From: Candidatus Kerfeldbacteria bacterium
GTDB taxonomy: Bacteria > Patescibacteriota > Patescibacteriia > SBBC01 > CAIJZX01
Assembly: GCA_963731735.1 (NCBI GenBank)
Contig: CAVSWO010000002.1
Coordinates: forward strand, 529-64,528
Direction of reading: 5' to 3'
Length of the DNA stretch: 64,000 nt
Shown here piece by piece: positions 36,602-59,749 of this stretch; position 1 is the stretch's first letter; every line of letters begins with the position of its first letter. The notes under the pieces were generated by a model that worked only from the letters and a program-made list of their open reading frames with translations, searched no databases and was not told the DNA's origin. The translations under genes were made by a program, and so were the position numbers.

Positions 36602-37702
36602 CTAGAGGCCGGCGGATTGCAATTCTTTCAGCAGTTTTTTCTGCTGGCCCGAAAGTTTACTCGGAATTTCCACCATCACGGTTACGAAATGGCTCCCCCG
36701 TCCGGTGCCGCGGATATTGACAAGCCCTTGATTCTTCAGGGAAAAAACTTTGCCGCTTTGGGTGCCGGCCGGAATTTTCAGGGTCTGGGTGGAGTCTAAG
36801 CCCGGGACTTCGACCGTGCCGCCCAGGGCAGCTTGCGTAATCGAAATGGTAATCGTTGAGAGGAGATCCGACCCACGGCGTTTGAAAACCGGATCGGGAG
36901 CCACGCGGACACGCAGATAGAGATCACCCGGCGGTGTACCGCGTCGGCCGGCTTCGCCTTTCCCGCTCAAGCGAATCTGCTGACCTGAATCTATGCCCGC
37001 CGGAATTTTGACCGTCAACCGGTCCATCAGCGACCGTCGACCCTCGCCATGACAAACCTTGCACGGTTTTTCGATAATCGTACCCTCGCCTTTACAGGTT
37101 GGGCAGACTTGGACCGTTTGCACGGTGCCCAAGAATGTTTGTTGGGCGCGTTGCACTTGGCCGCTGCCTTGGCAGGTGGCGCAGGTTTGGCGGTGACTGC
37201 CAGGTTCGGCACCTGCTCCTTTGCAGTGCTGACAAACGACCTGGTGCTTGAGTTCAATCGTTTGACTCCCGCCAAAAGCGGCCGTCCGAAAATCAATTGA
37301 TAATTCGGCTTCAATTTCCCGGCCGCGGGCTGGTTGCCGTTGCCCACGACTCGATCGACCGAATCCGAACAGATCGCCAAAAATGTCACCCATATCACCG
37401 AAGTCAACATTCCCGGTAAATCCGCCGCCGGCCGCGTTCCCCCAGGCCGACTGGCCGCCGAACCCGCCGAAGCCACCTTGGCGCTGGGCTTGTTCGGAGG
37501 TGGTACCAAATTGGTCGTACTGTTGACGCTTCGTTTGGTTACCTAAAACTTGATAGGCCTCGTTGACCTGCTTAAACTTCTCGGCGTCGCCGCCGGCTTT
37601 GTCGGGGTGCAGTTCATGAGCCTTCTTGCGAAATGCCTTCTTGATCTCATCCGCGCTGGCGGTGCGGGCAACTCCGAGAATCGAATAATAATCCTGAGCC
37701 AT
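36602..37702 (-). CDS. dnaJ: Molecular chaperone DnaJ.
   Basis: J-domain with HPD (HELHPDK), a G/F region and four CxxCxGxG zinc-finger repeats. Confidence 0.9.
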   Translation of the reverse strand: MAQDYYSILGVARTASADEIKKAFRKKAHELHPDKAGGDAEKFKQVNEAYQVLGNQTKRQQYDQFGTTSEQAQRQGGFGGFGGQSAWGNAAGGGFTGNVDFGDMGDIFGDLFGFGRSSRGQRQPARGREIEAELSIDFRTAAFGGSQTIELKHQVVCQHCKGAGAEPGSHRQTCATCQGSGQVQRAQQTFLGTVQTVQVCPTCKGEGTIIEKPCKVCHGEGRRSLMDRLTVKIPAGIDSGQQIRLSGKGEAGRRGTPPGDLYLRVRVAPDPVFKRRGSDLLSTITISITQAALGGTVEVPGLDSTQTLKIPAGTQSGKVFSLKNQGLVNIRGTGRGSHFVTVMVEIPSKLSGQQKKLLKELQSAGL

Positions 37703-37724
37703 ACTGCCGGCTACTCTACCATAA

Positions 37725-37751
37725 TTAGCACTCTCAATGCAAGAGTGCTAA
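37725..37751. promoter_or_regulatory. CIRCE operator (HrcA binding site) upstream of dnaJ.
   Basis: TTAGCACTC-tcaatgcaa-GAGTGCTAA, a perfect 9-N9-9 inverted repeat. Confidence 0.85.
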
Positions 37752-37829
37752 GCGGTCTCGGCCGGCCAATGGCTAGCTCCCCCGCTGTCTCCCAGCCCAG
37801 CCCAGGGCCGAGCCGATCTGTCCGGCCGA

Positions 37830-38945
37830 TTACTTGCCCCACTCCAATTTTTCAGCCGGGGCAGTATCATGGACCACGTGCAAAATACGGAGATGGCGAT
37901 ACAACCAGACCAACAGCCAACCAATCCAGGTGGCCGCGAATTGAAAGACGCCGGTTAGGATTTTCAAGATGAAAAACAGACCGAGGGCCAGCAACCACGG
38001 AACTACCGAAACATATTTTTTCACATACCGGTCGTATTGGCGGTTGACCAGTTCCGTCAGAAAAGAATGAATGGTCTGGGTATCACCGATATTTTGATTA
38101 AATTGATCGCTCAAAGCCTGCCGGATATTATCCGCAACTTGGGCCCGGGCCTGAACCAACTCTTGCTCCAGTTCAGATTCAAATTGCTGTCGCGATTCGT
38201 TCGGATCAATGGTGATATCGCTCGAAAACCCTTCGATCCCGCCCAGCCGATCATTGAGCGCCTGCTGTTTGTCGAGGCTGCTGGTTAACTGATCAAATTG
38301 GATGTCGTCAAGCAATTGATGGGCGGGCGGAATTTCTGTTTCGACTAGTTTGCTGAGCGTATAGTCCGGCTGGTAGCCGTCGATGAAATTTGGCAGGAAG
38401 CGTTCGATGACCGTCACGGCTTGGTCTGACAAATGCTGGCCCAACTCTTCGGGCGTGGAACTGGTTCCGCGGAGTTGCTGGTAATACAGTGTCGATACAC
38501 TCAACATCAAGAGCGTGACCATCAGCGGTAACGCCCAGCCAGCCGTCAAATGCGGTTTGACCAACAGCCGACTATGCGCGTCGCTGACAAAACGCTCCAG
38601 TGACCACCACAGCACCAGCCAGGTAAAGACCAGCACCCCAAGCGTCAGCCAAGTTAGCGGAAAAAATATCAGCAGCGGCAGGGCTGCCAGCAGCGCTCCC
38701 ACCAATCGGATCCAGCGCGCGCTGGCCACAAATCCGCTGGTCGTTAAGCCGCCCAGCCATAATCCAAAAGCGAAAAACCCGAAGATAATGAAGAACAGTA
38801 AATTCGGCAGGCTGGCGGTGGTGAAAGCCAGGTGGCCCTGGAGCGTTTGACTGACCACATACCACCAGCCGGCCGCGGCCGCCATACTCGGCGCCCAAAA
38901 CCACAGCAGTTTCGGGTTCCAGGGATTTTGTACCTCCGCCAGCAT
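37830..38945 (-). CDS. Polytopic membrane protein, hypothetical.
   Basis: 371 aa; N-terminal half TM-rich, C-terminal half soluble. Confidence 0.5.
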   Translation of the reverse strand: MLAEVQNPWNPKLLWFWAPSMAAAAGWWYVVSQTLQGHLAFTTASLPNLLFFIIFGFFAFGLWLGGLTTSGFVASARWIRLVGALLAALPLLIFFPLTWLTLGVLVFTWLVLWWSLERFVSDAHSRLLVKPHLTAGWALPLMVTLLMLSVSTLYYQQLRGTSSTPEELGQHLSDQAVTVIERFLPNFIDGYQPDYTLSKLVETEIPPAHQLLDDIQFDQLTSSLDKQQALNDRLGGIEGFSSDITIDPNESRQQFESELEQELVQARAQVADNIRQALSDQFNQNIGDTQTIHSFLTELVNRQYDRYVKKYVSVVPWLLALGLFFILKILTGVFQFAATWIGWLLVWLYRHLRILHVVHDTAPAEKLEWGK

Positions 38946-38950
38946 CGGTG

Positions 38951-39232
38951 TTAGGCCTGAAATCCGAAATCGTTGGCCGGTGCGGCGGTGGCTTCCAACG
39001 GTCCGAATTGATGCTCGTATTTTTTCAGATTCTCTTCGAGCGCCTTCAGGAACCGTTTGGCATGGCTCGGGCTGGTGATCACTCGGCTAACCAGCTGTCC
39101 ATGCGGCGGCAGAACGTGCAAAAAGTCAAAGACGACTTCTTCCTTGGTGTGTGAGATCTGCACCATGTTGGTGTACTGGCCTTTTAGTACATCATCGCTG
39201 GCTTTGATTTGAATTTGTTGTGGTGAAGCCAT
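38951..39232 (-). CDS. DUF3467-like small protein.
   Basis: GQYTNMVQISHTKEEVVFDF resembles the DUF3467 core motif. Start taken at MASPQQ. Confidence 0.5.
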   Translation of the reverse strand: MASPQQIQIKASDDVLKGQYTNMVQISHTKEEVVFDFLHVLPPHGQLVSRVITSPSHAKRFLKALEENLKKYEHQFGPLEATAAPANDFGFQA

Positions 39233-39376
39233 AGAGATTTTGATTAACGAACGCGGGTAGTATAGCACCGCAATCCTCGCCTGCACAGCCGGTCTGTCCG
39301 CCGACACGATTCAAGAAAATTCTATCGATACAAAAACCGCCCGAGAAATTCGGGCGGTTTAAGCGTTCGAATGGTG

Positions 39377-41500
39377 TTATGGAGCCAGCTCGCCAGCCGG
39401 TAATTTGCTTGGGCCTCCGCCGCCGCCAGATCCACTGGTGCAAAGGACTGGCTTAGTCAGCAGTAAATCTTCATAGGGCTGTCCTTTGGTATCATAGTAG
39501 AAGATCTTGTACCCATCACCGGTTGATGGCGTATAGCTGAAGGCCGGCAGGCACAGGGTAGTATTTATCGGAGTTGGCGCCACGTCACTCTCGGCCGTAT
39601 ATCCTCCCTGGAAATTCAGTTTGAGGTACGGCACATGGACGGGCGTGGTAATTGAACTGTCAACTACCGGCTGCACCATCAGCGGTTCAATTGTTCCGGA
39701 AGTGGTGGTCGAGGCGGAAACGGATTGGCTCGGGAAATGTATACTCCCTAACTGGTAGGTCCGCGCAAAGTTAAAGTTGAAGGTGCCTTCAAAAGATCCG
39801 GGATTGCCATCCGCGACGGTTGCGTTCGTAAAGTGAGTTACGTGGAGACCACGGTTGTAGCTCTGGGTGCAGCTGGTCTTAAGCGCGCGGTTGGTCAAGA
39901 ATATATCAGTGTACGGTTCGCCGTTTTGGTCGAAGTAGAAGGTGGTGTCACCTTCGCCCGTCGTGCCATTCAGGCTGTAGCTCGGGGTACAGGCCGTCAC
40001 ATTAAACGTCTGAGACGGTACGTTTGGATCAGCGCTGACCCAAAGATGCCCGGCTAAGTGCATGATCGTTTGAGGCACAATCACGGAACCCTCGATGTTT
40101 CCGGCTGTCGCATGAATGCCAAATGGTCCAATCGGGTTATAGGCACTGTTGTAATACGGTCCGGTTCCGTCAGCACTTAACCCGTACAGCAGGGTCTGAT
40201 CTTGGTACAGGTCGAAGTGACCCAGGCTGAAGTTTGATGGATCGGAGGCAATCACTTGTGACATGAGATGCAGGTCGGTAAAACTTGAAACCCGCAACAT
40301 GCGTTCACGTTTGGTCACGCAATCTTCGGTCACGACTGGCTGGGTTAAGAAGACATCGGAATAAGCGTTACCCCGGGTGTCAAAGAAGTAGCGGGCCGGT
40401 ACTTCGCTTTGGGTGACATCAACGGATGGCATACACAGCGTGGCTTGCTGTGATTCCCCCTGGTAGGGCGCGCCAGTGATTCGTATCAGCGCTTCGGGAG
40501 TCGTGTAATTGTCACCGAAGGTGAATTCCGGCATCAAGGTCAGCGGGGTGTCGCTTGGATAATCAACCACTTGGCTGCCATACGAAAAACCGTTGGCGAA
40601 GTTGTACAATCCAAGGTTAGCATTGCCGACTTGGAGGATATTCAGCGAGTGCGATAGTGTGCTCGGCAAAAACGAACCTTCCGTATTCGTGACGCTGGAA
40701 AATTTCAGTGACCGGTTTTTTATATCATCACAAGATTCGGACGTAGTTCGATTGGTTAGTTTACTGTCAGTGTAGGTTGAGCCATCGCTGCCAATATACA
40801 AACGAGATTCCGAGCTCTGGCCGATACACAGCGTCAAATAATCCGGACCCGAAGTTGCGTCCCGCATGTAACTAATAGTCACCATTTGGGCTGGAAATCC
40901 GAGCGGAGGATCTTCAATGGAAAATGGTGTAGCTTGTGCAGACGCCTCGGGTATTAAATATTTTTCAATCGGAGAACGATGACTGGGTGCCATGGCGGTG
41001 TTGCCCGGAGTCAACTCTATATAGACTGGGTAGGCACTGACCGGTACCTGTGCACTGGCTTCAGGTATCAACCATTGAGCGATTGTTGAACGACCGCTGG
41101 TCTCTTGATTGAGCGGGGGAAGCATGGAGACGGGTTGTGATTCAACATTTGGCGTAGCCTGAGACTCTCCCGCCGCCGAAGTTTGTGAATAAAACGTGTA
41201 CTGGCTATTGCCGACTTTGGCTTTGTAATACAGCGAAGCAAAAGCCTGATTTTGGTCCATCATCGAAACCGCATTAGAAATCACCGTGACTTTTAAGGGC
41301 TTATTTTTCGTTCCACCGCCTCCATTCCCGGAATCAAGCAATTTGGGAAAGGCCAACATCGCAAACCCCATAGCCAGCGCGCTCATGCCGATGGCCGTAC
41401 CTAAAAAAATACGGGTGGCGCTTAAGGCGATCCCCGTTGAGGTGGTTTGCTGGGTTGCTGACGAGACCTGATTCTTATCGGTATCGATGGTCAGTCGCAT
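39377..41500 (-). CDS. Large membrane-anchored or secreted surface protein with four Cys-bracketed internal repeats.
   Basis: N-terminal TM, duplicated YLIPEASAQ, and four modules of the form TLC...(Y/F)(Y/F)(F/Y)D..G.(A/P)Y.D.(F/L)LT......C. Gly-rich C-terminus. Confidence 0.6.
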   Translation of the reverse strand: MRLTIDTDKNQVSSATQQTTSTGIALSATRIFLGTAIGMSALAMGFAMLAFPKLLDSGNGGGGTKNKPLKVTVISNAVSMMDQNQAFASLYYKAKVGNSQYTFYSQTSAAGESQATPNVESQPVSMLPPLNQETSGRSTIAQWLIPEASAQVPVSAYPVYIELTPGNTAMAPSHRSPIEKYLIPEASAQATPFSIEDPPLGFPAQMVTISYMRDATSGPDYLTLCIGQSSESRLYIGSDGSTYTDSKLTNRTTSESCDDIKNRSLKFSSVTNTEGSFLPSTLSHSLNILQVGNANLGLYNFANGFSYGSQVVDYPSDTPLTLMPEFTFGDNYTTPEALIRITGAPYQGESQQATLCMPSVDVTQSEVPARYFFDTRGNAYSDVFLTQPVVTEDCVTKRERMLRVSSFTDLHLMSQVIASDPSNFSLGHFDLYQDQTLLYGLSADGTGPYYNSAYNPIGPFGIHATAGNIEGSVIVPQTIMHLAGHLWVSADPNVPSQTFNVTACTPSYSLNGTTGEGDTTFYFDQNGEPYTDIFLTNRALKTSCTQSYNRGLHVTHFTNATVADGNPGSFEGTFNFNFARTYQLGSIHFPSQSVSASTTTSGTIEPLMVQPVVDSSITTPVHVPYLKLNFQGGYTAESDVAPTPINTTLCLPAFSYTPSTGDGYKIFYYDTKGQPYEDLLLTKPVLCTSGSGGGGGPSKLPAGELAP

Positions 41501-41580
41501 AAATGTATTTTATTGATTATTTCTTCTCTTCGACATCTAGTATAGCAAAAAATACACCGTTTGTCAATTTGCTCCTCGCC

Positions 41581-41910
41581 CTACCGATTATCGCCTGAAC
41601 CGTGGATTTGATTCCGTTCCAACCGCGACAGCAGTTTGTCTAAATTGGTCTGGGCGACGGCGTCCAGTTCCAGTCCCAGCTCGGTGGCTAACTGCGCCAA
41701 GTACCACAGCACATCACCCATTTCTTTTTGAATCTCTTGGCGAGTAACTTCGTCGATCTGGCCGCCTTTGTCCCGTAGGATCTTTTTAATTTTTTCAGCC
41801 ACCTCGCCGGCTTCGCCGACCAGGCCTAAGGTCGGGTAGACAAAGTTTTGACCGGCGTCAGGATATTTGGCGGTGGTTCGACTTGATTGTTGATAGCTTG
41901 AAAATTCCAT
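41581..41910 (-). CDS. MazG-like nucleotide pyrophosphohydrolase (small all-alpha NTP-PPase).
   Basis: YPTLGLVGEAGEVAEKIKK...EMGDVLWYLAQLA. Confidence 0.75.
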   Translation of the reverse strand: MEFSSYQQSSRTTAKYPDAGQNFVYPTLGLVGEAGEVAEKIKKILRDKGGQIDEVTRQEIQKEMGDVLWYLAQLATELGLELDAVAQTNLDKLLSRLERNQIHGSGDNR

Positions 41911-41951
41911 GATTAAGAAATCAATGACAAGATTAGGTTGAGTATAGCATA

Positions 41952-42623
41952 TCAGGGTTCATAGTCTTTGGGCGCCGACGGCTGGTTACCCGGCATTCGT
42001 TCGATCGACAGCATCAGACCGTCCACTAGAATTTTTCCCAACACCACCGCCCACAGCGCGAACCAACCAAGGCTGACATGAACTACCAGCATCAGAAAAA
42101 CCGCCAATTCAACCACTGACGCGTGGATCAAGCTGGCCCGGAATATATCATGCGATACGATAAACCCACGACGTTGATTGAGCTCGCCCGCGACCCCGAT
42201 GATCAGGAGACTCACATTCATAAGGCCAAATGTCAGCAAGCCGGGGTCGGTGGAGGTTTCGGTAAACCATCGGACATGCCGAGCCCAGGTCGCGTCGGTC
42301 AAAAAGCTGAGCGCGACAGCTCCGCCGGTCCAGGCTAAGACCATTGAGCTGATCAGCCAGAGTGAGCCGAGGCTCAAAACCACCGCCCACAATACGTGGG
42401 CCGTGGCCGGGATATCCCAAGTAGCCAATTCAACTTCAACCGCCTGGTTTTCCCGGGCGTGAACTAAACCCCGTTTCAAAAGCGCCACACTTGTTATGAG
42501 GACGCCTTCCCACCAATATGCCAACCAGAGTGTTCCGACATCCCAATTTCCGGTCTGCACAAACACCAGTGGCAAGGCGTTGACGGCCAGCCAGAACCAC
42601 CGAGTTGGAGACTGCAGCGGCAT
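41952..42623 (-). CDS. Integral membrane protein, hypothetical.
   Basis: 223 aa with 5-6 TM segments. Confidence 0.5.
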   Translation of the reverse strand: MPLQSPTRWFWLAVNALPLVFVQTGNWDVGTLWLAYWWEGVLITSVALLKRGLVHARENQAVEVELATWDIPATAHVLWAVVLSLGSLWLISSMVLAWTGGAVALSFLTDATWARHVRWFTETSTDPGLLTFGLMNVSLLIIGVAGELNQRRGFIVSHDIFRASLIHASVVELAVFLMLVVHVSLGWFALWAVVLGKILVDGLMLSIERMPGNQPSAPKDYEP

Positions 42624-42718
42624 GATAGGTTCAGCCTAGCAGTCTGCCGCGCTTTTGCCTAGCCGATTATTTGCAGGCGCTTTTTGGGCGCATATATCCA
42701 AGTTTATCGCGGCTGGAC

Positions 42719-42746
42719 TTGACAATATTTCCTACCGGTGTATACT
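42719..42746 (+). promoter_or_regulatory. Strong promoter TTGACA-N16-TATACT with no protein gene downstream.
   Basis: cTTGACAatatttcctaccggtgTATACTgg. Confidence 0.6.
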
Positions 42747-42752
42747 GGCGGT

Positions 42753-43362
42753 TGTCTTTACAGGCCATCTTTGCGTCGCCCATGGGGTGCCGGGAGGGAT
42801 AGTCGCTCATCGAAGCGAGCAATTATCGAAGCGGTTGCGCTTCTCTCTCGGCCCCCGGGCGGCCGTCGAACGACATCCCCGCGGGGCGGGGCGCTGGGAC
42901 CTGCGCGGTCTCGACCTGAATTCCAACTTCGAGTTGGAATGAAGCCAGGGATCTGCGCGCCAGAGCCTGCCATCAGGTTCCAGCCCCCGCCGTGGTGGAT
43001 GCTTCCGTTCACGCACGCGAGCCGAACGCAGGACGACAAGAGTCCTGAAAACTGCTCGCGCGAACCGGCGAGGGTTCGGGGCTTCCGTGCGCCCCACCCT
43101 CGTCCGGTCTAAGACTTCTTCCTCGATCCTTCAGCTTTCAGCTTCGCCTTCCCGGTCTGCTTCCGGCAGACCACCGTGATTCACGGCGCAACCGAGACAG
43201 CGCCGCCACCATCAACGGAAGAAAGGAGGTGACCAATGAAAGGCCGCTCTCCGCTCTCGGGTAACCGGTAGCGCGCGGCGAATACGCTCTCACATTCGGG
43301 CCACCGCCCAATCACAATTTGACGAGCCTCCCCCGTTTCCTCGGAACCGGGGGAGTTTTTTC
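42753..43362 (+). ncRNA. Candidate structured non-coding RNA or long leader: ~610 nt, ~68% GC, no credible ORF, bounded by a promoter and a terminator.
   Basis: Many perfect hairpins (ccaac-ttcga-gttgg, ggtctgc-ttccg-gcagacc, cgaaccggcgagggttcg). Only Arg/Pro-rich overlapping ORFs. An 11-codon ORF with a perfect SD lies at 43236..43271. Confidence 0.4.
43328..43362 (+). terminator. Rho-independent terminator.
   Basis: ctcccccg-tttcctcggaac-cgggggag followed by ttttttc. Confidence 0.8.
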
Positions 43363-43365
43363 TAT

Positions 43366-43394
43366 TTGACGAATGGAGCGGCTTCCGTTAGAGT
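43366..43394 (+). promoter_or_regulatory. Promoter TTGACG-N17-TAGAGT.
   Basis: TTGACGaatggagcggcttccgtTAGAGT, then a GGAGG SD and the ATG at 43428. Confidence 0.6.
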
Positions 43395-43427
43395 GCCGTT
43401 GCTCTTTTCCTTCGACCCGGAGGTTGC

Positions 43428-43775
43428 ATGACCGTTATTCGGAAGTTCGGCCCAACCCGTTTTCGTGAGTACGAAGTCGTGGCGGGCGACGAAGTCATGA
43501 CCATCAGCCAGAGCGGCGTTTCATTCAAGCTGGCCTACTTGCCGGAACTGCCTTTCACACGGTATTACGTCTGGTTCAGCTACATCAAGAGTGCCAGGGA
43601 AAACGAGTATATGCTCTCGTGCCATTACCGGTTGCGGGATGGCAAGGATCGACCGAACATGATCCAAATCATCGGCTCGTTTGCAAGCCTGACCGATGCC
43701 CAGGATTTCCTGCGCGGCGTGGCCCCGCTGCTGCCCGAGCTGCCGGCCGACCAACTCCCGAACAACCAGTCCTAG
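43428..43775 (+). CDS. Hypothetical protein.
   Basis: 115 aa with its own promoter and SD. Confidence 0.55.
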   Translation: MTVIRKFGPTRFREYEVVAGDEVMTISQSGVSFKLAYLPELPFTRYYVWFSYIKSARENEYMLSCHYRLRDGKDRPNMIQIIGSFASLTDAQDFLRGVAPLLPELPADQLPNNQS

Positions 43776-43781
43776 CCCCGG

Positions 43782-44372
43782 CTAGGACTTTTTTTCTGCC
43801 GGCAGAACGGCTGCCAATTTTTCTACCGTCGTGAAGACGTGGGTTTGAAACCCGAGTGAGCCGGCGAACGAAGACACCTCTGCCGAATGATCAATCAGCA
43901 AACAATCCGACGGTTGGTAGGCGCCTTTCTGTAACAGCAACTTATAAAATTCCTGATCATGTTTGGTCAGACCGAGATCGCAGGAAAATAACAAGGTGTC
44001 AAAAAATTCCGGCAAATTATAGGCGGTCCGGATGGCATTTTTCTTATCCGGCGAACAATCGGTGGCCAAGCCCAAGGCGACTTGCCCGTGAAGCATGTTG
44101 ATCAACCCCCAGACTTCCCGATTCGGATCAACGTGGAGAAAATATTTTTTTCCCGCCACTACCGCCTGGTTTCCAAACAATCGTTCAACCATCGCCCAAA
44201 AATCTTCCGGCGGCAAACTCCCGGTCATGTAGGCGTAACTATGCTGCTCGAGTTCTGCGCTAATCGCTTGGTGATCTGTCTGTCCGGCGACTTGGCCGAT
44301 CGCCTGCATCAAACCGGTGAAGGTTCGCCGGTCGAGCACGCCGTGATAATCGAAATATATGATCTTGGCCAT
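43782..44372 (-). CDS. HAD-superfamily hydrolase.
   Basis: Motif I IIYFDYHGVLD, with downstream ATDCSP and D-rich motifs. Confidence 0.65.
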   Translation of the reverse strand: MAKIIYFDYHGVLDRRTFTGLMQAIGQVAGQTDHQAISAELEQHSYAYMTGSLPPEDFWAMVERLFGNQAVVAGKKYFLHVDPNREVWGLINMLHGQVALGLATDCSPDKKNAIRTAYNLPEFFDTLLFSCDLGLTKHDQEFYKLLLQKGAYQPSDCLLIDHSAEVSSFAGSLGFQTHVFTTVEKLAAVLPAEKKS

Positions 44373-44472
44373 GGCGATAGTTTAGCACCGCGTTGACATT
44401 TGGGCGAGGTATGCTAGCGTCAAGTCAAGCAGCTCATTCGCAGCCTATCTCTTGGCCAAAACACGAGGAGCC

Positions 44473-44793
44473 ATGATCGAGCACGTCAAGCTGTTTGACT
44501 ACGCGCACGACGGAGCCTGTTTCCTGCACACCCGTGAAGGTTCAACGCTCTGGATTGCGCATCGCAATTTCCAGTTCCGTTTATTCACGCGCTTGAACCT
44601 CCGGATCCGGCCCAACGACCGGGTCAGTCTGACCTATCACGCCGGCGCCATCCAGCTGATCGTCGGGCAGCAATCGGCCGACCAATGTCGGACCATCGCC
44701 CTGGCCGAAGCCGAACTGACGCCGCGTTTGGCGAGCTGGATCGACCGAGCCAATCTCTACCTGGGATCGTCCCAGCCCCCGGTGCTACCGTAA
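44473..44793 (+). CDS. Hypothetical protein.
   Basis: ORF 44452..44793; start taken at MIEHVKL. Confidence 0.4.
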   Translation: MIEHVKLFDYAHDGACFLHTREGSTLWIAHRNFQFRLFTRLNLRIRPNDRVSLTYHAGAIQLIVGQQSADQCRTIALAEAELTPRLASWIDRANLYLGSSQPPVLP

Positions 44794-44796
44794 GCA

Positions 44797-44830
44797 CCGG
44801 GGTATTTTTATAAAAAAACGGAGCTCATGA
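44797..44830 (-). terminator. Terminator hairpin (cggagctcgtcatgagctccg plus a T tract on the minus strand).
   Basis: Read directly. Confidence 0.6.
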
Positions 44831-45055
44831 CGAGCTCCGAGACTTCTGAAAGAACGGCCAGCCGGTCTGCGCGAGAATTTCCCCGTAGATGGCCAACCCG
44901 ATGACAATCGCCACTCCGTTCCAGGTCAGGACTTGGCCGAACATCAGCAGGAAGATGATGGCAACAACTTCGAGCGTGCCGCCGATGGCCAAGTACTGGT
45001 TGGGCGGAAAATTTCCCTGCGCCTCCAAATCACGATAGGTCCGCGATCCTAACAT
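44825..45055 (-). CDS. Small two-TM membrane protein.
   Basis: Strong SD AGGAGGAGATAATG; 76 aa. Confidence 0.5.
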   Translation of the reverse strand: MLGSRTYRDLEAQGNFPPNQYLAIGGTLEVVAIIFLLMFGQVLTWNGVAIVIGLAIYGEILAQTGWPFFQKSRSSS

Positions 45056-45084
45056 TATCTCCTCCTAGGTGTGTGGGTAGTGGG

Positions 45085-45122
45085 AGTATACCACAATCCC
45101 CCCCCCAACCTCCGCGCGGCCG
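45085..45122. repeat. Copy R1 of a 20-bp GC-rich motif family (...CCCAACCTCCGCGCGGCCGG), fused to an extended -10 element GTATACCACA on the opposite strand.
   Basis: Read directly; compare R2-R5. Confidence 0.8.
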
Positions 45123-45394
45123 GCGCGGTACATTAAATTTCGTGAGAGTCAAGAATTATTCGACGGAAATATTAGTTCAAGTCTACTATCACAAAAACAC
45201 TCGCAGAAGTAAGAAAACTCCCGAGACGGCAGAGCCAAGTAGGAGTACTGAAGGGACGCCGACCAGACGGCGCAGTTCCAATGAAATCGATTGTTTGGTT
45301 TTGAAGGCAAACCGGTATTGACAAAAAACGGTTTTTTTGCTAGCCTGCTTGGTCAGTTAAATGACGTCAAAATCTAAACAATCTGGAGGATACG

Positions 45395-45598
45395 ATGTTC
45401 ATTCCTGTGCTTCTCCTCGCCCTGGCTACCGGTAGTGGCATTGCGCTGGGATATGGAACGCATAGCGCCGCCATCGGCTGGGCCGCTTCTTTCGGCCTCC
45501 TGATGCTCGCCGTGAGCATTATTCAGATCATGCACTACTTGGATGCCATCCTGGATTCCCAGCAGGCCATCCGCGAACTCATCAGGAATCGGATGTAG
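45395..45598 (+). CDS. Small two-TM membrane protein.
   Basis: SD GGAGGATACGATG; 67 aa; terminator downstream. Confidence 0.5.
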   Translation: MFIPVLLLALATGSGIALGYGTHSAAIGWAASFGLLMLAVSIIQIMHYLDAILDSQQAIRELIRNRM

Positions 45599-45625
45599 AA
45601 CCTTCCGACCAGGCCAACAAACTTT

Positions 45626-45656
45626 GGGAGCCCCCTCGGGGACTCCCTCTTTTTTA
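45626..45656 (+). terminator. Rho-independent terminator.
   Basis: gggagccccctcggggactccc followed by tctttttt. Confidence 0.7.
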
Positions 45657-45704
45657 CAACCTTCTTAAAAACTTTGGTCGAGGCTCCACCTGCTTTGTCT
45701 AGGC

Positions 45705-45733
45705 TTGACTAGTCACAAATAAACCGCTATCCT
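45705..45733 (+). promoter_or_regulatory. Promoter TTGACT-N17-TATCCT.
   Basis: TTGACTagtcacaaataaaccgcTATCCT. Confidence 0.5.
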
Positions 45734-45821
45734 GTGCAAGCTCTCTTCCGACTGGATGGGAGTCTTGTTCATCACTTGTCTCGGAGATACTTGCCGGGAC
45801 GCTTCTCCAGGGGGCTTTACC

Positions 45822-46610
45822 ATGAAGCGTTGCAAACTGCTGGGGGCATTTTCCATCCTGCTGATGCTGACCCTGCCCCTCTCGGCCTTCGCGGCCACGC
45901 TGACCGTCACGCCGAGCGCACCGCTCGGCTGGGGTCCGCAGAACGTGACCGGTGGCGGCACCGTCGCCATCACCACCACCTACCCGCGGACGACCGACGG
46001 TTCGCTTCAGTTCACGGGTTCCAGCGGCAGCTCCAAGGCCGACTACGAGCTCGACAACCTCAATCCCGGCGGCTTCGGGCTAGTCAAGGACATCACGTCC
46101 GTCGGCTACGAATTCTACCGGAACAGCTCGAGCAGCAACCCGGCGGTTCAGGCTCCGGCCATGCGGCTCGGCGTCTACGATCCGGTTTCGGGTGCCGCTT
46201 CGCTGCTGATCTACGAACCGGTTTACAACGGCTACCCGTCGTCGGTTCCGACCGACAGCTGGGTGACGATCGACGGTCTCAATGGGAACTGGTGGATGCG
46301 TGCTTTCGGCTCGCCCTCCTGCTCGTACGAGATCTACGACATCACCCTGGCCGAGTGGGCGACCAATTCGAACAACGGCAATCCGTTGCAGCCGTACAAC
46401 GGTTGCACACCGAACCCGGTCGGTCCGAACGCCTGGGTCTACGCCATCAACGTGGGTATCGGTTCCGGCTGGAACGGCGCCTTCGACGGCGCGGTCGACA
46501 ACGTTACCCTCGGGTTCAATGGCCTGTCGGTGACCTACAACTTCGAACCGGATCTGCCGACCCCGGATTCCAAGACCTCTTGGGGTCGGCTCAAGACCAT
46601 CTACCGCTAA
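45822..46610 (+). CDS. Secreted Gly/Ser/Asn/Thr-rich protein, hypothetical.
   Basis: Signal peptide MKRCKLLGAFSILLMLTLPLSAFA; 262 aa. The alternate-frame ORF 45734..46615 is Arg-rich junk produced by high GC. Confidence 0.6.
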   Translation: MKRCKLLGAFSILLMLTLPLSAFAATLTVTPSAPLGWGPQNVTGGGTVAITTTYPRTTDGSLQFTGSSGSSKADYELDNLNPGGFGLVKDITSVGYEFYRNSSSSNPAVQAPAMRLGVYDPVSGAASLLIYEPVYNGYPSSVPTDSWVTIDGLNGNWWMRAFGSPSCSYEIYDITLAEWATNSNNGNPLQPYNGCTPNPVGPNAWVYAINVGIGSGWNGAFDGAVDNVTLGFNGLSVTYNFEPDLPTPDSKTSWGRLKTIYR

Positions 46611-46631
46611 CCTAGCTGCACCTTCAACACC

Positions 46632-46660
46632 CCGGCCGTTGCGCGAAGCGCAACGGCCGG
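46632..46660 (+). terminator. Long GC hairpin (ccggccgttgcgc-gaa-gcgcaacggccgg) with a weak U tract.
   Basis: Read directly. Confidence 0.5.
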
Positions 46661-46666
46661 TCTTCT

Positions 46667-46692
46667 AATCCCCCAACCTTCGCCCGGACTGG
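46667..46692. repeat. Copy R2 of the motif (AATCCCCCAACCTTCGCCCGGACTGG), between convergent gene ends.
   Basis: Read directly. Confidence 0.8.
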
Positions 46693-46716
46693 GTCAGACC
46701 GCAGGCTGGAGTTGGA

Positions 46717-47136
46717 CTAATTTCCTTGTATCGCCTTTACAATTTCGTCGATGACTCCCTCCGAAACTTTCCGCTCTGTCCCCCGTTCATAATGACTACC
46801 GAAAGCCTTGTCCTCAAACAGTTCACCGGCGAACGTAACCGGTTTGTTATATCTCGGCCGAACGTGCCAATGCACGTGCGGATTCGGAGGATCGTTCCGA
46901 TAGGCGTGATTCATTAAGCAGGTCCAGTTGAACATCGTTGCACCGAATGCTTTCTTGCATGCGGATTCGAGTTGTTTCACCACCTGCGAAAAATCATTCC
47001 ATTGATCCGCAGTCAGGTTGGACATGGATCCAACTGGCTCCTTGCATACCACGATGCAACGACCGAGATAGGTTTGGTCGTCATTTTTTAGTAAGACTTT
47101 CCAATGCGGAGTTTCGAAGATCAGGTACTGCTTCAT
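46717..47136 (-). CDS. HIT-family (histidine triad) hydrolase.
   Basis: HVHWHVRPRY histidine-triad motif; 139 aa. The -10 lies 7 nt from the ATG, so the mRNA is leaderless. Confidence 0.8.
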   Translation of the reverse strand: MKQYLIFETPHWKVLLKNDDQTYLGRCIVVCKEPVGSMSNLTADQWNDFSQVVKQLESACKKAFGATMFNWTCLMNHAYRNDPPNPHVHWHVRPRYNKPVTFAGELFEDKAFGSHYERGTERKVSEGVIDEIVKAIQGN

Positions 47137-47144
47137 GGTATTGA

Positions 47145-47178
47145 GTATACCACACCCCCAACCTTCGCCCGGCCGGGG
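47145..47178. repeat. Copy R3 (GTATACCACACCCCCAACCTTCGCCCGGCCGGGG).
   Basis: Read directly. Confidence 0.8.
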
Positions 47179-47201
47179 TCACTGTGAAGGCGCGGTTAGA
47201 A

Positions 47202-47969
47202 TCATCGAATACTACGAATCCACTTTTTCAATAGTTCTTTTATTTCAGCCAAATGTCGCGGATCGATAAATGTGTGGGGTGCGCCAGCGATTGTATGAAT
47301 TTCTTTTGAACCAGGGATGGCATCAAAAAACATTTTTTGGTGCTCAGGCGGCGTAGCGTCATCAAGTTCACCAGCCAAAAGAAACACGGGCATGGTCAAT
47401 TTCCCTGCCTCGGGGAGTAAATCATATTTTAGCCGATCGGCTAGGTGAGACCATTTCAGGCGTTTGATCACGCCCGGCATTGTTCTACTCGGCCTCACGC
47501 GCCAGCCAGTAGCTTCCCAATCGCGCAAATCCTCAGGTGTATGCGTGTCAAGAGAAAGCCTGCCTGAAACGACTGTCGAGATTGGCGCCAAAGCCATAAC
47601 TTCCCGTGGAAATTTTTCGGCATAGAGTGCCACGCAAATTCCTCCAAGGCTATGCCCAGCTAATGCGAATGGCTCACGATACCATTTCTGCGTTTTTGCC
47701 CACGCGATCACCGTTTCCAAGTCCTCATAGTAACTCGTAATCGTCGCGTCCTCATAGTTCCCCTCGCTCTCCCCGAACGTATCTCGCGCGTCAAAAAGCA
47801 CGACCGTATACCCTGACTCTTTCCAAGCGTCGGCCAGTGTTTTAATGTGCTGTTGTTCCTTATTGCCTCCTAACCCATGCATCACAAATGCCAGCCCTTT
47901 CTGATTCGGTACTTCCTCAACCAACACCGCAATTTTTTCGCCCTTACTATTTTGGATGAGGGTTTTCAT
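47202..47969 (-). CDS. Alpha/beta-fold hydrolase.
   Basis: GHSLGG nucleophile elbow; 255 aa; leaderless promoter context. Confidence 0.8.
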   Translation of the reverse strand: MKTLIQNSKGEKIAVLVEEVPNQKGLAFVMHGLGGNKEQQHIKTLADAWKESGYTVVLFDARDTFGESEGNYEDATITSYYEDLETVIAWAKTQKWYREPFALAGHSLGGICVALYAEKFPREVMALAPISTVVSGRLSLDTHTPEDLRDWEATGWRVRPSRTMPGVIKRLKWSHLADRLKYDLLPEAGKLTMPVFLLAGELDDATPPEHQKMFFDAIPGSKEIHTIAGAPHTFIDPRHLAEIKELLKKWIRSIR

Positions 47970-47976
47970 GACTCAA

Positions 47977-48014
47977 GTATACCACAATCCCACCCAACCT
48001 CCGCCCGGCCGGCG
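47977..48014. repeat. Copy R4 (GTATACCACAATCCCACCCAACCTCCGCCCGGCCGGCG).
   Basis: Read directly. Confidence 0.8.
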
Positions 48015-48089
48015 TTAACTTGCGGGTGGGGGCTGGGCTTGACGCTGCAATGCTCTGGGCGTACCCTAATCGCAGGTGGCACAGAATCT

Positions 48090-48497
48090 ATGCCGCCTGT
48101 TCGTACAAGCCATAAATTAGCCGCCAGACGAAAAGCACTCCGGCACTCAATGACCGAACCGGAGATATTTTTATGGTCTCATCTGAAGAATCGTAAATTG
48201 CTTGGTTATAAGTTCAGGCGTCAACACAGTATCGGTCAATATATTCTCGATTTTTATTGTCATGAATTGTATCTAGCGGTTGAAGTTGATGGTTCGCAAC
48301 ATTTTGAACCGGCGGCTCAACGATACGACCGTCTACGCACAGAATATCTCGAGTCATTGAAGGTACAAGTTGTTCGGTACACGAACAGTGATGTGCTGAA
48401 TAATCTCGATAGGGTCTTGGAAAATCTCATGCAGGTGATTCGGCGGCGGCGAGTTCGACCTCCCCGGCGCTCGACTTCTCGCGCCACCCCTCCCTAA
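48090..48497 (+). CDS. DUF559 endonuclease-domain protein (Vsr-like fold).
   Basis: TEPEIFLWSHLKNRKLLGYKFRRQHSIGQYILDFYCHELYLAVEVDGSQH is the DUF559 signature. Confidence 0.7.
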   Translation: MPPVRTSHKLAARRKALRHSMTEPEIFLWSHLKNRKLLGYKFRRQHSIGQYILDFYCHELYLAVEVDGSQHFEPAAQRYDRLRTEYLESLKVQVVRYTNSDVLNNLDRVLENLMQVIRRRRVRPPRRSTSRATPP

Positions 48498-48616
48498 TCG
48501 GGAGGGGAAATTGTGGTCGCCGCCTCAACCCGCTCCCCTCCTTCTGCTCCCCGGGATACGGGGAGCGTTCCGCGTTAGCGGAACAGAGGGGCCGAGGAGG
48601 GGCCACCGAACGTAAT

Positions 48617-48642
48617 GCCCCCCCAACCTTCGCCCGGCCAGC
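48617..48642. repeat. Copy R5 (ATGCCCCCCCAACCTTCGCCCGGCCAG).
   Basis: Read directly. Confidence 0.8.
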
Positions 48643-48694
48643 ATAGTTTGTGACATTACAAAACGGCCCGGCTTTCGCCGGGCCGCATGATTAC

Positions 48695-50665
48695 TTATTT
48701 ACTTTCCTCTTTTCCGGCGGAGCCGGATCCGGCTTCGCCGGGCTTTTCATCCACGACTTCCCCTTCAACGGGGCCTTGTCCTGAGGCCGAACCGGAGTCG
48801 GCCGAAGGACCTCCTTGTCCACCCTGCGCCTGTTGCATGGCTGGACCAATCTTCTGAATCGCTTCGGACAGCGCCTTGGTGGCGTTTTCGATCGCCAGTT
48901 TATCGGTACCGTCTTTGACCTTTTTGAGGTCATTCATCTTGCCTTCAATATCGGCGCGCATTTCGCCCGGGACTTTGTCGCCGGCGTCTTTGAGCGCTTT
49001 TTCGGCGGTGAAGACCAGCTGTTCAGCCGCGTTCTTGGTATCAATCAATTCCTTCTTCTTGGCGTCTTCGGCCGCATGAATTTCGGCGTCCTTACGGAGT
49101 TTCTCGACTTCCGCCTTATCGAGGCCGGTTGAACCTTGAATCGTGATTGACTGCTCCTTGCCGCTGGTTTTGTCCTTGGCTTTGACGTTCAGGATGCCGT
49201 TGGCGTCAATATCGAAGGTAACTTCGATCTGCGGCGTGCCGCGCGGCGCCGGCGGAATGCCGTCCAGGATGAAGCGGCCGAGGGTTTTGTTGTCCGGTGC
49301 CATCGGGCGCTCGCCTTGCAGGACGTGAATCTCGACTTGCGGCTGGTTGTCCGCGGCGGTCGAGAAGACCTGCGACTTCGAGGTTGGAATAGTCGTATTA
49401 CGCTCGATCAGCGGGGTCATGACTTGGCCGAGGGTTTCCAGGCCGAGGGTCAACGGGGTGACGTCGAGCAGTAAGACATCTTTGACTTCACCTTGGAGTA
49501 CGCCGGCTTGGACGGCCGCCCCGAGAGCCACCACTTCGTCCGGATTGACGCTGGCGTTCGGTTCCTTGCCGAAGAATTCCTTGACGGTTTTGATCACCAG
49601 CGGCATCCGGGTCATCCCGCCGACGAGAATCACTTCGTTAATGTCGGACGGTTGGAGCCCGGCGTCGCTTAAGGCTTTCTTGGTCGGTTCGAGGGTCTTT
49701 TGGACCAGGTCGCCAACCAGGTTTTCCAGCTGGGCTCGGCTGAAGGTTTTGACTAAGTGCAGCGGACCGGCATCACCTTGGGTAATAAACGGCAAGTTGA
49801 TTTCCGTTTCCTGCGAGCTCGAGAGTTCCTGCTTGGCTTTTTCCGCGGCTTCTTTCAGGCGCTGGAGCGCCAGGTGGTCTTTCGACAAATCAATCCCCTC
49901 CTGTTTGCGGAACTCTTCAATCAGCCAGTGAATGACTAACTGGTCGAAGTCGTCGCCGCCGAGGTGCGTATCGCCATTCGTCGATTTGACTTCAACCGTG
50001 TCGGCTGAAACTTCCAATATCGAGATGTCGAAGGTTCCGCCACCCAGGTCATAGACCGCGATTTTTTCATCTTTCTTTTTGTTGAAGCCGTAGGCCAAGG
50101 CCGCGGCAGTCGGTTCGTTGATGATGCGTTTGACGTCAAATCCGGCGATCCGGCCGGCATCCTTGGTGGCTTGGCGCTGGGCATCGTCAAAATAGGCCGG
50201 CACGGTAATCACCGCTTCGGTAATTTTTTCACCCAAGCGAGCTTCGGCGTCGGCTTTGAGTTTGCCGAGGACCATGGCCGAAATTTCCTGCGGCGTGTAG
50301 TCTTTATCGCCCATGGTGACTTTGACGCCTTCGCCGGCGTGCTTGATTTCGAACGGCATGATTTTCAGGTCGCGCTGGACTTCCTCGTCGTCCCAACGGC
50401 GGCCGATCAGGCGCTTGATTGAAAACAGCGTGTTCTTCGGGTTGACCACCGCTTGGCGCTTGGCCACCTGGCCGACCAACCGTTCGTTGGTTTTTGACAG
50501 GGCCACCATCGACGGCGTGGTCCGGCTGCCTTCGGCGTTTTCAATAATTTTTGGTTCGCCACCTTCGACGACCGCCATGGCCGAGTTGGTGGTTCCGAGA
50601 TCGATTCCGAGAATTTTTGGCATAATGATGAGAGAGTTATTTAGCGATGTTGATGAAGGAGCCAC
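48695..50665 (-). CDS. dnaK: Molecular chaperone DnaK (Hsp70).
   Basis: [22 protein letters not shown] and other Hsp70 signatures. 656 aa. Confidence 0.95.
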
Positions 50666-52759: not shown

Positions 52760-52786
52760 TTAGCAGTCTACCATAGAGAGTGCTAA
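52760..52786. promoter_or_regulatory. CIRCE operator upstream of hrcA, overlapping a TATACT -10 element.
   Basis: TTAGCAGTC-taccataga-GAGTGCTAA. Confidence 0.8.
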
Positions 52787-52872
52787 TTTGAGTATACCCC
52801 CGCTCTTTTTTCGCGTCAAATCCCCTAGCCTGCGCCGGCTGGGGAAAGAAAAACCCCACCAAGGGTGAGGTT

Positions 52873-58248: not shown

Positions 58249-58258
58249 AAGCAGCAGC

Positions 58259-58287
58259 ACTCTACAGGAAAAAATCCATAAAATCAA
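58259..58287 (-). promoter_or_regulatory. Promoter TTGATT-N17-TAGAGT for tRNA-Glu.
   Basis: Minus strand TTGATTttatggattttttcctgTAGAGT, 10 nt before the tRNA 5' end. Confidence 0.6.
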
Positions 58288-58417
58288 GACTGATAAGTTT
58301 ATCTGATTATGCTCGATTCCTGCTAAAACAAAACAGCTGTGACGCTTGACGTTGAGTCTTCGATCGTGAGACTCGACGCGCGGTCGACAGCCATTTTGGT
58401 TTCGTGATGTTTCGAAA

Positions 58418-58639
58418 TTAGAGCAGCCGGTTCGTCCGTTCCGTGTTCAAGAAAACACCAGCCATCACGCTCAGCATACCCATCAACAGATGGAAGACTG
58501 GGTCGCCGAAAAGCTGCTGGGTACCGATTTGGTTGATGAAACCGTACTGGACCCAGAACGCCATAAGACCGTTAACGAGACCGAACCAGAAGAAGGCTTT
58601 GGCCAAGACGGACATATCAAATTTCCACATTGCGTTCAC
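58418..58639 (-). CDS. Small membrane protein.
   Basis: 73 aa with two TM helices. Confidence 0.4.
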   Translation of the reverse strand: MNAMWKFDMSVLAKAFFWFGLVNGLMAFWVQYGFINQIGTQQLFGDPVFHLLMGMLSVMAGVFLNTERTNRLL

Positions 58640-58717
58640 CTCCTTTCGGTTTTTGGCCGAACGTATTCGGCTGGGGATAATTGCTCGTATTAGTATACCA
58701 CACTGATGCCGGACTGT

Positions 58718-59749
58718 TTACGCAAGTGCTTGCTGACCAACGGCCACGGCCTGCTCAACAAAACGGTTCGAATACCCCCATTCGTTATCATACCAGGCGC
58801 CGACTTTGACCAGATCATTATCGATCACCTTGGTCAGCGGTAAATCGACAATCGCCGAATGCGGGTTACCTTTGAAGTCCGAGGACACGAGCGGTTCGGT
58901 GTTGACCGCTAAAATGCCGCGCATGTCCGGACGCGCGGCCCAACGGGAAAAGGCTTCATTCACGGCTTCGATGGTGGTGGTCTTATTCGTCAGGAAAGTG
59001 AAATCCGTATAGGAGACGACCAGGCTCGGAACCCGGAGCGCGTACCCGTCAAACTTACCCTGTAAATCCGTCAAGACTTCGGTGGTCGAAATGGCCGCCC
59101 CGGAAGTGGTCGGAACAATATTCATGGCGGCCGCCCGCGCCCGGCGCAAATCCGGATGCAGCGGCGGAACCGGACCATCCACTAAATTCTGTTCGGCGGT
59201 GTAGGAATGAATGGTTGTCATGCCGGCTTTTTTGACCCCGAACTCATGCATCATCACGCGCGTCACCGGTGAAACGCAGTTGGTGGTACAGGAAGCGTTG
59301 GAAATAACCGCGTCGCCATGGTTGTCGCTTTCGTTCACGCCGAGCAGGTAGGTTTTGATGTCGCCGCCTTTGGTTGGCGCCGAAACGATCACCCGTTTGG
59401 TACCTGATTCGAGGTGAACCTTAGCCGCGCCGTCTTTGGTAAAGCGACCGGTGCATTCCATCACCACGTCAACCTGTAATTCCTTCCAAGGTAACTTGGC
59501 CGGATCCTTTTCCGATAAAAATTTGATGCGGTGGCCGGCGACTTCCAGCGCGTCCCCGAGAACCTTGACCGACTTCGTGTAGGGACCGTAGGCGGTGTCG
59601 TAGCGTAACAAGTGAGCCATGACTTCCAGGCTGCCAAGATCGTTGATGGCCACGATTTCAAGCTCCGGTTTTTCAATCGCGATTTTGAGTGCATTGCGAC
59701 CAATCCGGCCGAAACCGTTGAAGGCAATGCGAATAGGACGAGTCGGCAT
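58718..59749 (-). CDS. gap: Type I glyceraldehyde-3-phosphate dehydrogenase.
   Basis: NGFGRIGR, ASCTTNC, and an N-terminal Rossmann fold. 343 aa. Confidence 0.9.
   Translation of the reverse strand: MPTRPIRIAFNGFGRIGRNALKIAIEKPELEIVAINDLGSLEVMAHLLRYDTAYGPYTKSVKVLGDALEVAGHRIKFLSEKDPAKLPWKELQVDVVMECTGRFTKDGAAKVHLESGTKRVIVSAPTKGGDIKTYLLGVNESDNHGDAVISNASCTTNCVSPVTRVMMHEFGVKKAGMTTIHSYTAEQNLVDGPVPPLHPDLRRARAAAMNIVPTTSGAAISTTEVLTDLQGKFDGYALRVPSLVVSYTDFTFLTNKTTTIEAVNEAFSRWAARPDMRGILAVNTEPLVSSDFKGNPHSAIVDLPLTKVIDNDLVKVGAWYDNEWGYSNRFVEQAVAVGQQALA

Follow-up and report, generated by a model that had tools for sequence, protein, structure and literature searches.

A candidate ~610-nt structured RNA with a masked mini-ORF between dnaK and dnaJ of a Candidatus Kerfeldbacteria bacterium

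A 64,000-nucleotide (nt) stretch from a Candidatus Kerfeldbacteria bacterium (assembly GCA_963731735.1, contig CAVSWO010000002.1, positions 529-64,528, forward strand; hereafter the window) contains, at 42719-43362 of its plus strand, a segment that we read, with a probability of roughly 0.4, as a stand-alone transcription unit for a ~610-nt, highly structured regulatory RNA of a class not yet described, which would carry a gated mini-open reading frame (mini-ORF). All coordinates are positions within this 64-kb window. The segment has a near-consensus promoter of host type, a strong one-directional terminator, noncoding sequence between them, and a predicted fold that lies far beyond background and falls into discrete domains; from these features we infer that the RNA is transcribed, acts in trans, and gates its mini-ORF. 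Modeled from one sequence, it is a well-delimited and credible candidate for a structured RNA that is new and fits no known family.

The limits of the predicted transcript are set by a sigma-70-type promoter and an intrinsic terminator, both of which had been proposed in a preliminary description of this DNA and hold up here. The promoter at 42719-42746, TTGACA-N16-TATACT, belongs to a grade (11/12 consensus matches) reached by just four sites on both strands of the window, and the remaining three sit 39, 41, and 208 nt 5′ of ORF starts. TATACT is the usual −10 hexamer of this organism; it precedes many genes and also lies 11 nt upstream of tRNA-Gln. Transcription would begin at ~42753-42754. 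At the other end, an 8-base-pair (bp) stem (43328-43335 with 43348-43355) and an inner 3 bp form the terminator hairpin (−20.7 kcal/mol), with U6 at 43356-43361; it is one-directional, since the minus strand has no T-run. The structured block begins and ends within a few nucleotides of these two signals. A 9-nt direct repeat, ATTTGACGA, at 43317-43325 and 43364-43372 flanks the 38-nt terminator hairpin and looks as if the hairpin had been inserted; ~0.15 such pairs are expected by chance, and the arrangement is only suggestive.

The sequence between these signals shows none of the properties of a gene. GC content at codon positions 1, 2, and 3 (GC1, GC2, and GC3) is flat across the RNA region (0.61/0.64/0.63), unlike every real gene in the window, where GC2 falls well below GC1 and GC3, and its three-base periodicity of 0.2 falls in the lowest 1.6% (window median 6.1). 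The ORFs found on the two strands (124, 96, 93, 57, and 44 amino acids (aa), the first three Arg/Pro-rich) are the chance yield of 63% GC, in agreement with the preliminary description, which had regarded the Arg/Pro-rich ORFs as artefactual. The concatenated translations of the 124-, 96-, 93-, and 57-aa ORFs, drawn from both strands, gave 0 matches at E ≤ 0.001 among 1.84 billion protein representatives, and hence no homolog that encodes an intact protein here. The flat codon-position GC, nil periodicity, and lack of protein matches in this set dispose of one earlier candidate explanation, namely, a decayed protein-coding gene that retained its expression signals: stop-free stretches of up to 129 codons speak for it, but long ORFs are expected by chance at this GC, and we consider a decayed gene effectively excluded.

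The base composition is less extreme than first described. The preliminary figure of ~68% GC is replaced by a measured 63.0% for 42753-43362, with a peak of 66% in a 300-nt subwindow, and the phrase “far more GC-rich than the genome” was an overstatement, because the segment lies ~2 standard deviations above the window mean of 54.8% (standard deviation 4.1), in the top 1.1% of 610-nt segments. The density of perfect hairpins, by comparison, was correctly noted: eight with a stem of at least 6 bp occur in the RNA region, versus a mean of 1.9 (standard deviation 1.4) per 610 nt, placing it in the top 0.2% of segments.

The plus strand has a minimum free energy (MFE) of −298.7 kcal/mol, with z = −12.1 relative to dinucleotide shuffles. 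Native genomic sequence often folds better than its shuffles; thus, we calibrated the fold excess on 35 control segments of 610 nt spread over the 64 kb, each compared with its own shuffles. The native value minus the shuffle mean is −53 to −56 kcal/mol for the RNA versus −10.4 ± 9.8 kcal/mol in the controls, 4.5 standard deviations out; the lowest control value, −33.3 kcal/mol, comes from a segment with a tRNA. Six other GC-rich segments gave fold z-scores of +0.2 to −2.2, while four subdomains of the RNA folded alone gave z = −3.7 to −6.0, with 0/200 shuffles as good in each. Based on several controls, therefore, the RNA is predicted to be structured beyond chance, subject to a caveat from regression on GC that is weighed below. 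Many of the predicted helices hold G·U pairs, which fits the plus strand as the RNA strand.

In the predicted fold (Table 1), a four-armed 5′ domain is followed by a single-stranded linker, a 3′ domain, two hairpins, and the terminator. Arm B has a perfect 9-bp tip at 42920-42940 and a 16-nt internal loop at 42959-42974; arms C and D occupy 43014-43062 and 43067-43104, respectively, and the loop of arm D, UUCCGUGC (43083-43090), is wholly unpaired. The 3′ domain is built on pairing of CUUUCA...UCGCCUUC (43135-43151) with GGAGGUGA...UGAAAG (43225-43242), the latter strand containing the core of the Shine–Dalgarno (SD) sequence and the start codon of the mini-ORF.

Table 1. Predicted features of the candidate RNA and its transcription unit
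Feature	Positions	Strand	Basis
Sigma-70-type promoter	42719-42746	+	TTGACA-16 nt-TATACT, 11/12 consensus matches
Predicted transcript, ~610 nt	42753-43361	+	Noncoding except mini-ORF; promoter and terminator bracketing
5′ domain, 362 nt, four arms	42754-43115	+	Closed by 42754-42766 paired with 43106-43115; helix list and pair probabilities
Arm A, Y-shaped three-way element	42775-42863	+	−55.9 kcal/mol alone, z = −6.0, 0/200 shuffles as good
Arm B, 150-nt irregular hairpin	42864-43013	+	−81.3 kcal/mol, z = −5.8
Arms C and D, two hairpins	43014-43105	+	−50.8 kcal/mol, z = −5.5
CU-rich single-stranded linker UUCUUCCUCGAUCCUUCAG	43116-43134	+	Mean unpaired probability 0.76
3′ domain	43135-43242	+	−45.3 kcal/mol, z = −3.7
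Extended SD sequence GAAAGGAGGTGA	43221-43232	+	Duplex with 16S tail, −20.2 kcal/mol
11-codon mini-ORF MKGRSPLSGNR	43236 (ATG)-43271 (TAG)	+	Read from sequence
Two 3′ hairpins	43243-43327	+	First capped by GUAA (GNRA) tetraloop, 43261-43264
Intrinsic terminator	43328-43361	+	GC-rich hairpin then U6, −20.7 kcal/mol

The mini-ORF and its SD sequence, GAAAGGAGGTGA, were found as first described. We measured SD strength as the energy of the duplex with the 16S tail, presuming a canonical CCUCC tail for this host, at 34 gene starts in the window; the SD of the mini-ORF is the strongest of them, and most of the others lack one, their duplex energies lying above −7 kcal/mol. The same 12-nt sequence occurs twice in the window, and its other copy serves the gene of a 70-73-aa membrane protein (58418-58639, minus strand). 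GGAGG is under-represented overall in the window, yet it stands upstream of several genes, a number of them small. The presence of the identical SD at a genuine small gene, together with GGAGG before several others, makes the ribosome-binding site (RBS) of the mini-ORF a credible native signal and not an accident, though it is masked in the predicted fold: the SD core, with an unpaired probability of ~0, and the UG of its AUG are paired at probabilities near 1.

Two sets of side observations concern these translation signals. The region of the 70-73-aa predicted membrane-protein gene (58418-58700, minus strand) also has an TGTGGTATACT promoter, and the control segment from 58051, which holds tRNA-Glu and part of this region, has the strongest fold excess of the 35 controls; folded alone, 58249-58720 gives z = −2.9. 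Across the window, TATACT, often as TGTGGTATACT, lies just 6-10 nt before ATG (e.g., 47981, 47149, 10034, 8824, 56393, and 54167, minus strand), indicating that several mRNAs are apparently leaderless.

The strength of this RBS raises the question of whether the transcript is simply the mRNA of a tiny peptide, with the 11-aa peptide (or a 28-aa one upon read-through of the TAG at 43269) as the product and the 480 nt upstream as a tuning 5′ untranslated region (UTR). The SD is the strongest among the scored starts and correctly spaced to the ATG, an identical SD serves a real small gene, and the in-frame extension past the TAG stops at a TGA (43320-43322) just before the terminator. On the other hand, the 11 residues show no hydrophobic or cysteine pattern and, to our knowledge, are fewer than in known free-standing bacterial peptides; a stable predicted helix encloses both SD and AUG; and ~80% of the transcript would be elaborate structure unneeded by a simple UTR. 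We regard a peptide mRNA as distinctly unlikely.

The terminator is followed 66 nt downstream by an orphan gene of 115 aa on the same strand (43428-43775), so that the RNA could also be viewed as a cis-regulatory leader of this gene, in which the mini-ORF as leader peptide, or the 5′ domain as sensor of a ligand or protein, would control read-through of the terminator. The layout is that of attenuators such as trpL and ermCL, in which a short ORF with a good SD precedes hairpins, an intrinsic terminator, and a same-strand gene; here, the mini-ORF, its translation presumed, spans 43236-43271 and is followed by the terminator at 43328-43361 and the gene. In a read-through transcript, moreover, GCGGCUUCCG (43378-43387) is predicted to pair with the SD region of the 115-aa gene, CGGAGGUUGC, and the peptide starts MKGR, a +x+ pattern. 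Such a pattern is a feature of macrolide-dependent stalling peptides.

What this arrangement lacks is the switch. Constrained folds in search of an antiterminator found none: the terminator is kept in the MFE structure whether a ribosome covers all, half, or none of the mini-ORF region, and nothing competes strongly for its 5′ arm except a G-rich stretch ~450 nt upstream, itself sequestered in the arm B helix. Thus, no ribosome-selected antiterminator that excludes the terminator was seen, and the earlier suggestion of a long attenuator leader for the mini-ORF is weakened, its order of elements standing but its terminator having no local antiterminator and persisting with or without the ribosome. 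The very strong terminator (−20.7 kcal/mol followed by U6) argues against such control as well, as does the failure to find known aptamers with Rfam 15 at either of two thresholds. The candidate leader would further differ from the trpL/ermCL type in being ~5-10 times the typical length and in encoding a peptide with no run of a regulatory amino acid, and a 675-nt leader would be unusual in an organism in which several mRNAs are apparently leaderless. The 115-aa gene has its own promoter-like site (TTGACG-17-TAGAGT) and a GGAGG SD, which fits two separate units; its short leader, when folded, is not unusually structured, and its AlphaFold model has a predicted local distance difference test score of 53, too low for a fold search. 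The evidence favors, short of proof, treating the RNA and the 115-aa gene as separate units, and we hold the cis-leader to be unlikely.

We also compared the RNA with known families. A cmscan of the whole window with the 4227 families of Rfam 15, a set that covers RNase P, transfer-messenger RNA (tmRNA), signal recognition particle (SRP) RNA, 6S, OLE, ROOL, GOLLD, HEARO, riboswitches, T-box, and introns on both strands, returned two tRNAs elsewhere and nothing in the RNA region, including no riboswitch aptamer of a known class. With permissive filters and E ≤ 10 over 42600-43450, the best hits reached 14-17 bits versus gathering scores of 50-75 (top hit 16.9 versus 50), and ARAGORN found no tmRNA in the window. 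The preliminary failure to recognize RNase P, tmRNA, or SRP motifs is therefore upheld by the Rfam search that it had recommended, in which no hit of the kind that would overturn a novel class appeared at either threshold. Its suggestion of a large structured noncoding RNA of unknown class has survived all tests run, given the absence of an Rfam hit, the exceptional predicted fold, and the noncoding sequence.

These searches bear directly on whether the segment might be a divergent member of a known family (RNase P, tmRNA, SRP, 6S, OLE, ROOL, GOLLD, or a group I/II intron) or an element that acts at the DNA level (oriT, attC, or an origin). OLE and ROOL RNAs are ~600 nt long, and the size is indeed like theirs; dense hairpins, likewise, could act in single-stranded DNA. 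Yet none of the 4227 families matches even at E ≤ 10, ARAGORN sees no tmRNA, no relaxase, integrase, reverse transcriptase, IscB/TnpB, or defense gene was found nearby, and the bracketing by promoter and terminator points to an RNA product. Both forms of this explanation appear highly improbable.

The resemblance to the large RNA classes OLE (~610 nt), ROOL (~580 nt), GOLLD (~800 nt), and raiA is instead one of general character: the candidate shares their size class, GC richness relative to the genome, multidomain predicted fold, and lack of ORFs. It was also spotted by the same logic of long GC-rich intergenic regions that led to the discovery of such classes (PMC11109978, PMC6429828). In contrast to them, it matches none of their covariance models (CMs) and is a single sequence, whereas those classes were defined by covariation over many genomes; none of them has a strong SD and mini-ORF, and associated proteins such as OapA were not found near the candidate.

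Searches for homologs returned only the organism itself. An exact look-up found only the same organism, in which a second assembly is 99.96% identical with both differences outside the RNA. For comparison, we assembled 80 loci from GTDB anchored on DnaK; these carry the best matches to the host DnaK among 185,579 species genomes, at 61-77% identity, and their labels include Patescibacteria, Nitrospira/Nitrospirota, Dehalococcoidia, and oddly labeled or mislabeled third-party annotation metagenome-assembled genomes. In these 80 loci, there was no nhmmer match to the RNA, no match with a CM of the 3′ domain (R1), and no comparable GC-rich, hairpin-dense noncoding block. On inspection, the post-dnaK gap of locus L003 and a hairpin-dense segment of locus L046 consisted of small or AT-rich coding genes and CIRCE (controlling inverted repeat of chaperone expression). 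The RNA had no blastn match among plasmids and phages; three viral scans gave nothing or one chance match; and a metagenome scan with only the 20-mer of SD and ATG, a poor pattern, returned 21 ordinary gene starts and no RNA homolog. The flanking 115-aa and 223-aa proteins have only self-matches in 5.8 billion clusters. The host DnaK and DnaJ are themselves singletons at 90% identity among 15 billion proteins, which suggests that the host lineage itself is unsampled.

The genomic setting of the RNA is unusual. Between hrcA-grpE-dnaK and dnaJ stand 10,992 nt of mostly orphan genes (37702-48695), with the RNA among them; dnaJ falls inside the fetched dnaK flank in 59/80 relatives and, in the 11 loci measured, lies 7-2532 nt downstream of dnaK. 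From this difference in spacing, the RNA is placed, on gene order, in a lineage-specific insertion of ~11 kb. Some genes of this island have a GC3 of 0.77-0.82, compared with ~0.60 elsewhere, and the genes adjoining the RNA are among those raised (0.77 and 0.82).

This setting lends some weight to the possibility that the segment has no function and is a GC-rich, hairpin-rich spacer in a horizontally acquired island, with promoter- and terminator-like sites that are fortuitous or relics. A lineage-specific insertion with foreign-looking neighbors, the lack of a homolog in any search, and a modest GC-regressed fold score are all as this explanation would have it. However, the promoter is of host type and matches those of real genes in quality, promoter and terminator frame the structured block almost exactly, the fold excess stands 4.5 standard deviations past 35 controls that include GC-rich ones, and the hairpins are all different, with no second copy or repeat family of the RNA in the window. 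We judge a functionless spacer to be somewhat unlikely.

Several of the same observations weigh against our reading of the segment as a regulatory RNA. When MFE was regressed on GC across the window, the RNA remained the most extreme segment on the plus strand, but with z = −2.6. The minus strand folds about equally well in absolute energy (MFE −301.9 kcal/mol, z = −8.05 versus shuffles), and all of the structure is a single-sequence prediction. The RNA also lies in a lineage-specific insertion whose neighboring genes have atypical GC3; the GC excess may stem in part from a foreign island and not from RNA structure, and some of the GC richness and hairpins could be inherited composition. The genomes, metagenomes, viruses, plasmids, and phages searched yielded no homolog and hence no sign of covariation, conservation, or selection. 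Finally, the motif GCTTCCG (GCUUCCG in RNA) occurs on the plus strand at 43001, 43081, 43159, and 43381, four copies in 387 nt, two in predicted hairpin loops, of which three are inside the RNA and the fourth is 20 nt past the terminator, in the spacer of the putative promoter of the 115-aa gene, where upon read-through it could pair with the SD of that gene; this cluster is given little weight, as 5% of segments hold some 7-mer at four or more copies (empirical P ~0.05).

If the segment does specify a stand-alone regulatory RNA, we propose that it works in trans, as a regulator or a scaffold, with the 362-nt 5′ domain serving as a four-armed body. The CU-rich linker (43116-43134) and the loops at 43083-43090 and 43161-43164, all predicted to be accessible, resemble an anti-SD sequence; they could base-pair with the purine-rich ribosome-binding sites present at only some host genes, several of them small. 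One CU-rich strand would pair in cis with the RNA’s own strong SD and start codon, such that the mini-ORF would be translated only when this helix is opened by competition from the 30S subunit, by temperature, or by a partner; loading of a ribosome at the mini-ORF may, in turn, remodel or stabilize the 3′ part. Unconstrained RNA-RNA duplex prediction gave no informative targets, and a CsrA sponge was ruled out, because GGA is not enriched in the RNA.

By analogy, we tentatively liken this RNA to the dual-function type represented by Staphylococcus aureus RNAIII (514 nt, encoding delta-haemolysin), SR1, and SgrS. Like these, it would be a long multihairpin RNA with its own promoter and terminator (here by prediction only), an embedded small ORF with a structurally restrained initiation region, and C/U-rich loops and a linker, predicted to be accessible, that could pair with SD regions. 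As to a repeated loop motif, CTTCC, with five copies in the RNA, is in the top 0.8% of segments, and the GCUUCCG cluster falls at P ~0.05. Unlike them, it shows no sequence or CM similarity, which makes the likeness one of function only; its ORF has just 11 codons and lies near the 3′ end; its CU-rich elements are not a clearly significant repeated motif; and its host belongs to an unrelated, uncultured lineage. A second comparison is with STAB-SD of the cryIIIA 5′ UTR, a ribosome-binding stabilizer that lies near the 5′ end and protects the downstream mRNA. The candidate similarly has a perfect extended SD (GAAAGGAGG...) in a barely translated or untranslated RNA, which could bind the 30S subunit without making a real protein; its SD, in contrast, stands ~130 nt before the 3′ end, in a strand that is paired in the predicted fold. 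It is possible, though doubtful, that the RNA is the first known example of a novel class of ~600-nt multidomain RNAs with their own promoter, a four-armed body, and an anti-SD-gated RBS with an 11-codon ORF, which would sense or titrate ribosomes.

The neighboring genes offer no clue to the function of the RNA: they encode MazG, a DUF6498-like membrane protein, an HAD-like hydrolase, an alpha/beta hydrolase, a DUF559 protein, and several orphans. No defense-system or phage-structural matches occur in this context, no reverse transcriptase, IscB/TnpB, recombinase, or relaxase is present near the RNA, and no integrase or boundary repeats were seen at the 37702-48695 block. Two CIRCE operators, TTAGCACTC-N9-GAGTGCTAA, lie at 37723-37751 and 52760-52788, so that dnaJ and hrcA each have one upstream; possession of its own CIRCE marks dnaJ as a separately HrcA-controlled unit. 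Within the island, a 26-27-nt repeat, CCCCCAACCTTCGCCCGGCCGGGG, occurs in five copies in 3.5 kb (45100-45125, 46668-46696, 47153-47181, 47989-48017, and 48618-48646), three of which abut an extended −10 promoter of the form TGTGGTATACT on the minus strand; a regulatory site common to several genes or a small family of repeats are both conceivable. The segment 48351-48960, at the convergent end of the DUF559 gene and dnaK, ties for the top perfect-hairpin density in the window, and its hairpins are probably bidirectional terminators plus a copy of this repeat. Outside the island, an 847-aa protein (26703-29246, minus strand) has weak similarity to TraD/coupling proteins, below curated cutoffs, a hint that remains of a conjugative element lie 14 kb from the RNA.

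Large structured RNAs are uncommon in bacteria, and unexpected biology has followed from every new class (OLE, ROOL, GOLLD, raiA). The present value of this candidate is as a precise target, with coordinates, strand, and a domain model, for transcriptomics and covariance-model searches. If our reading is correct, the RNA would come from a deeply branching lineage with almost no sampled relatives and would couple an elaborate fold to a masked, exceptionally strong RBS in a genome with leaderless-looking mRNAs and mostly SD-less scored starts, a coupling that would bear on how such organisms use the anti-SD sequence.

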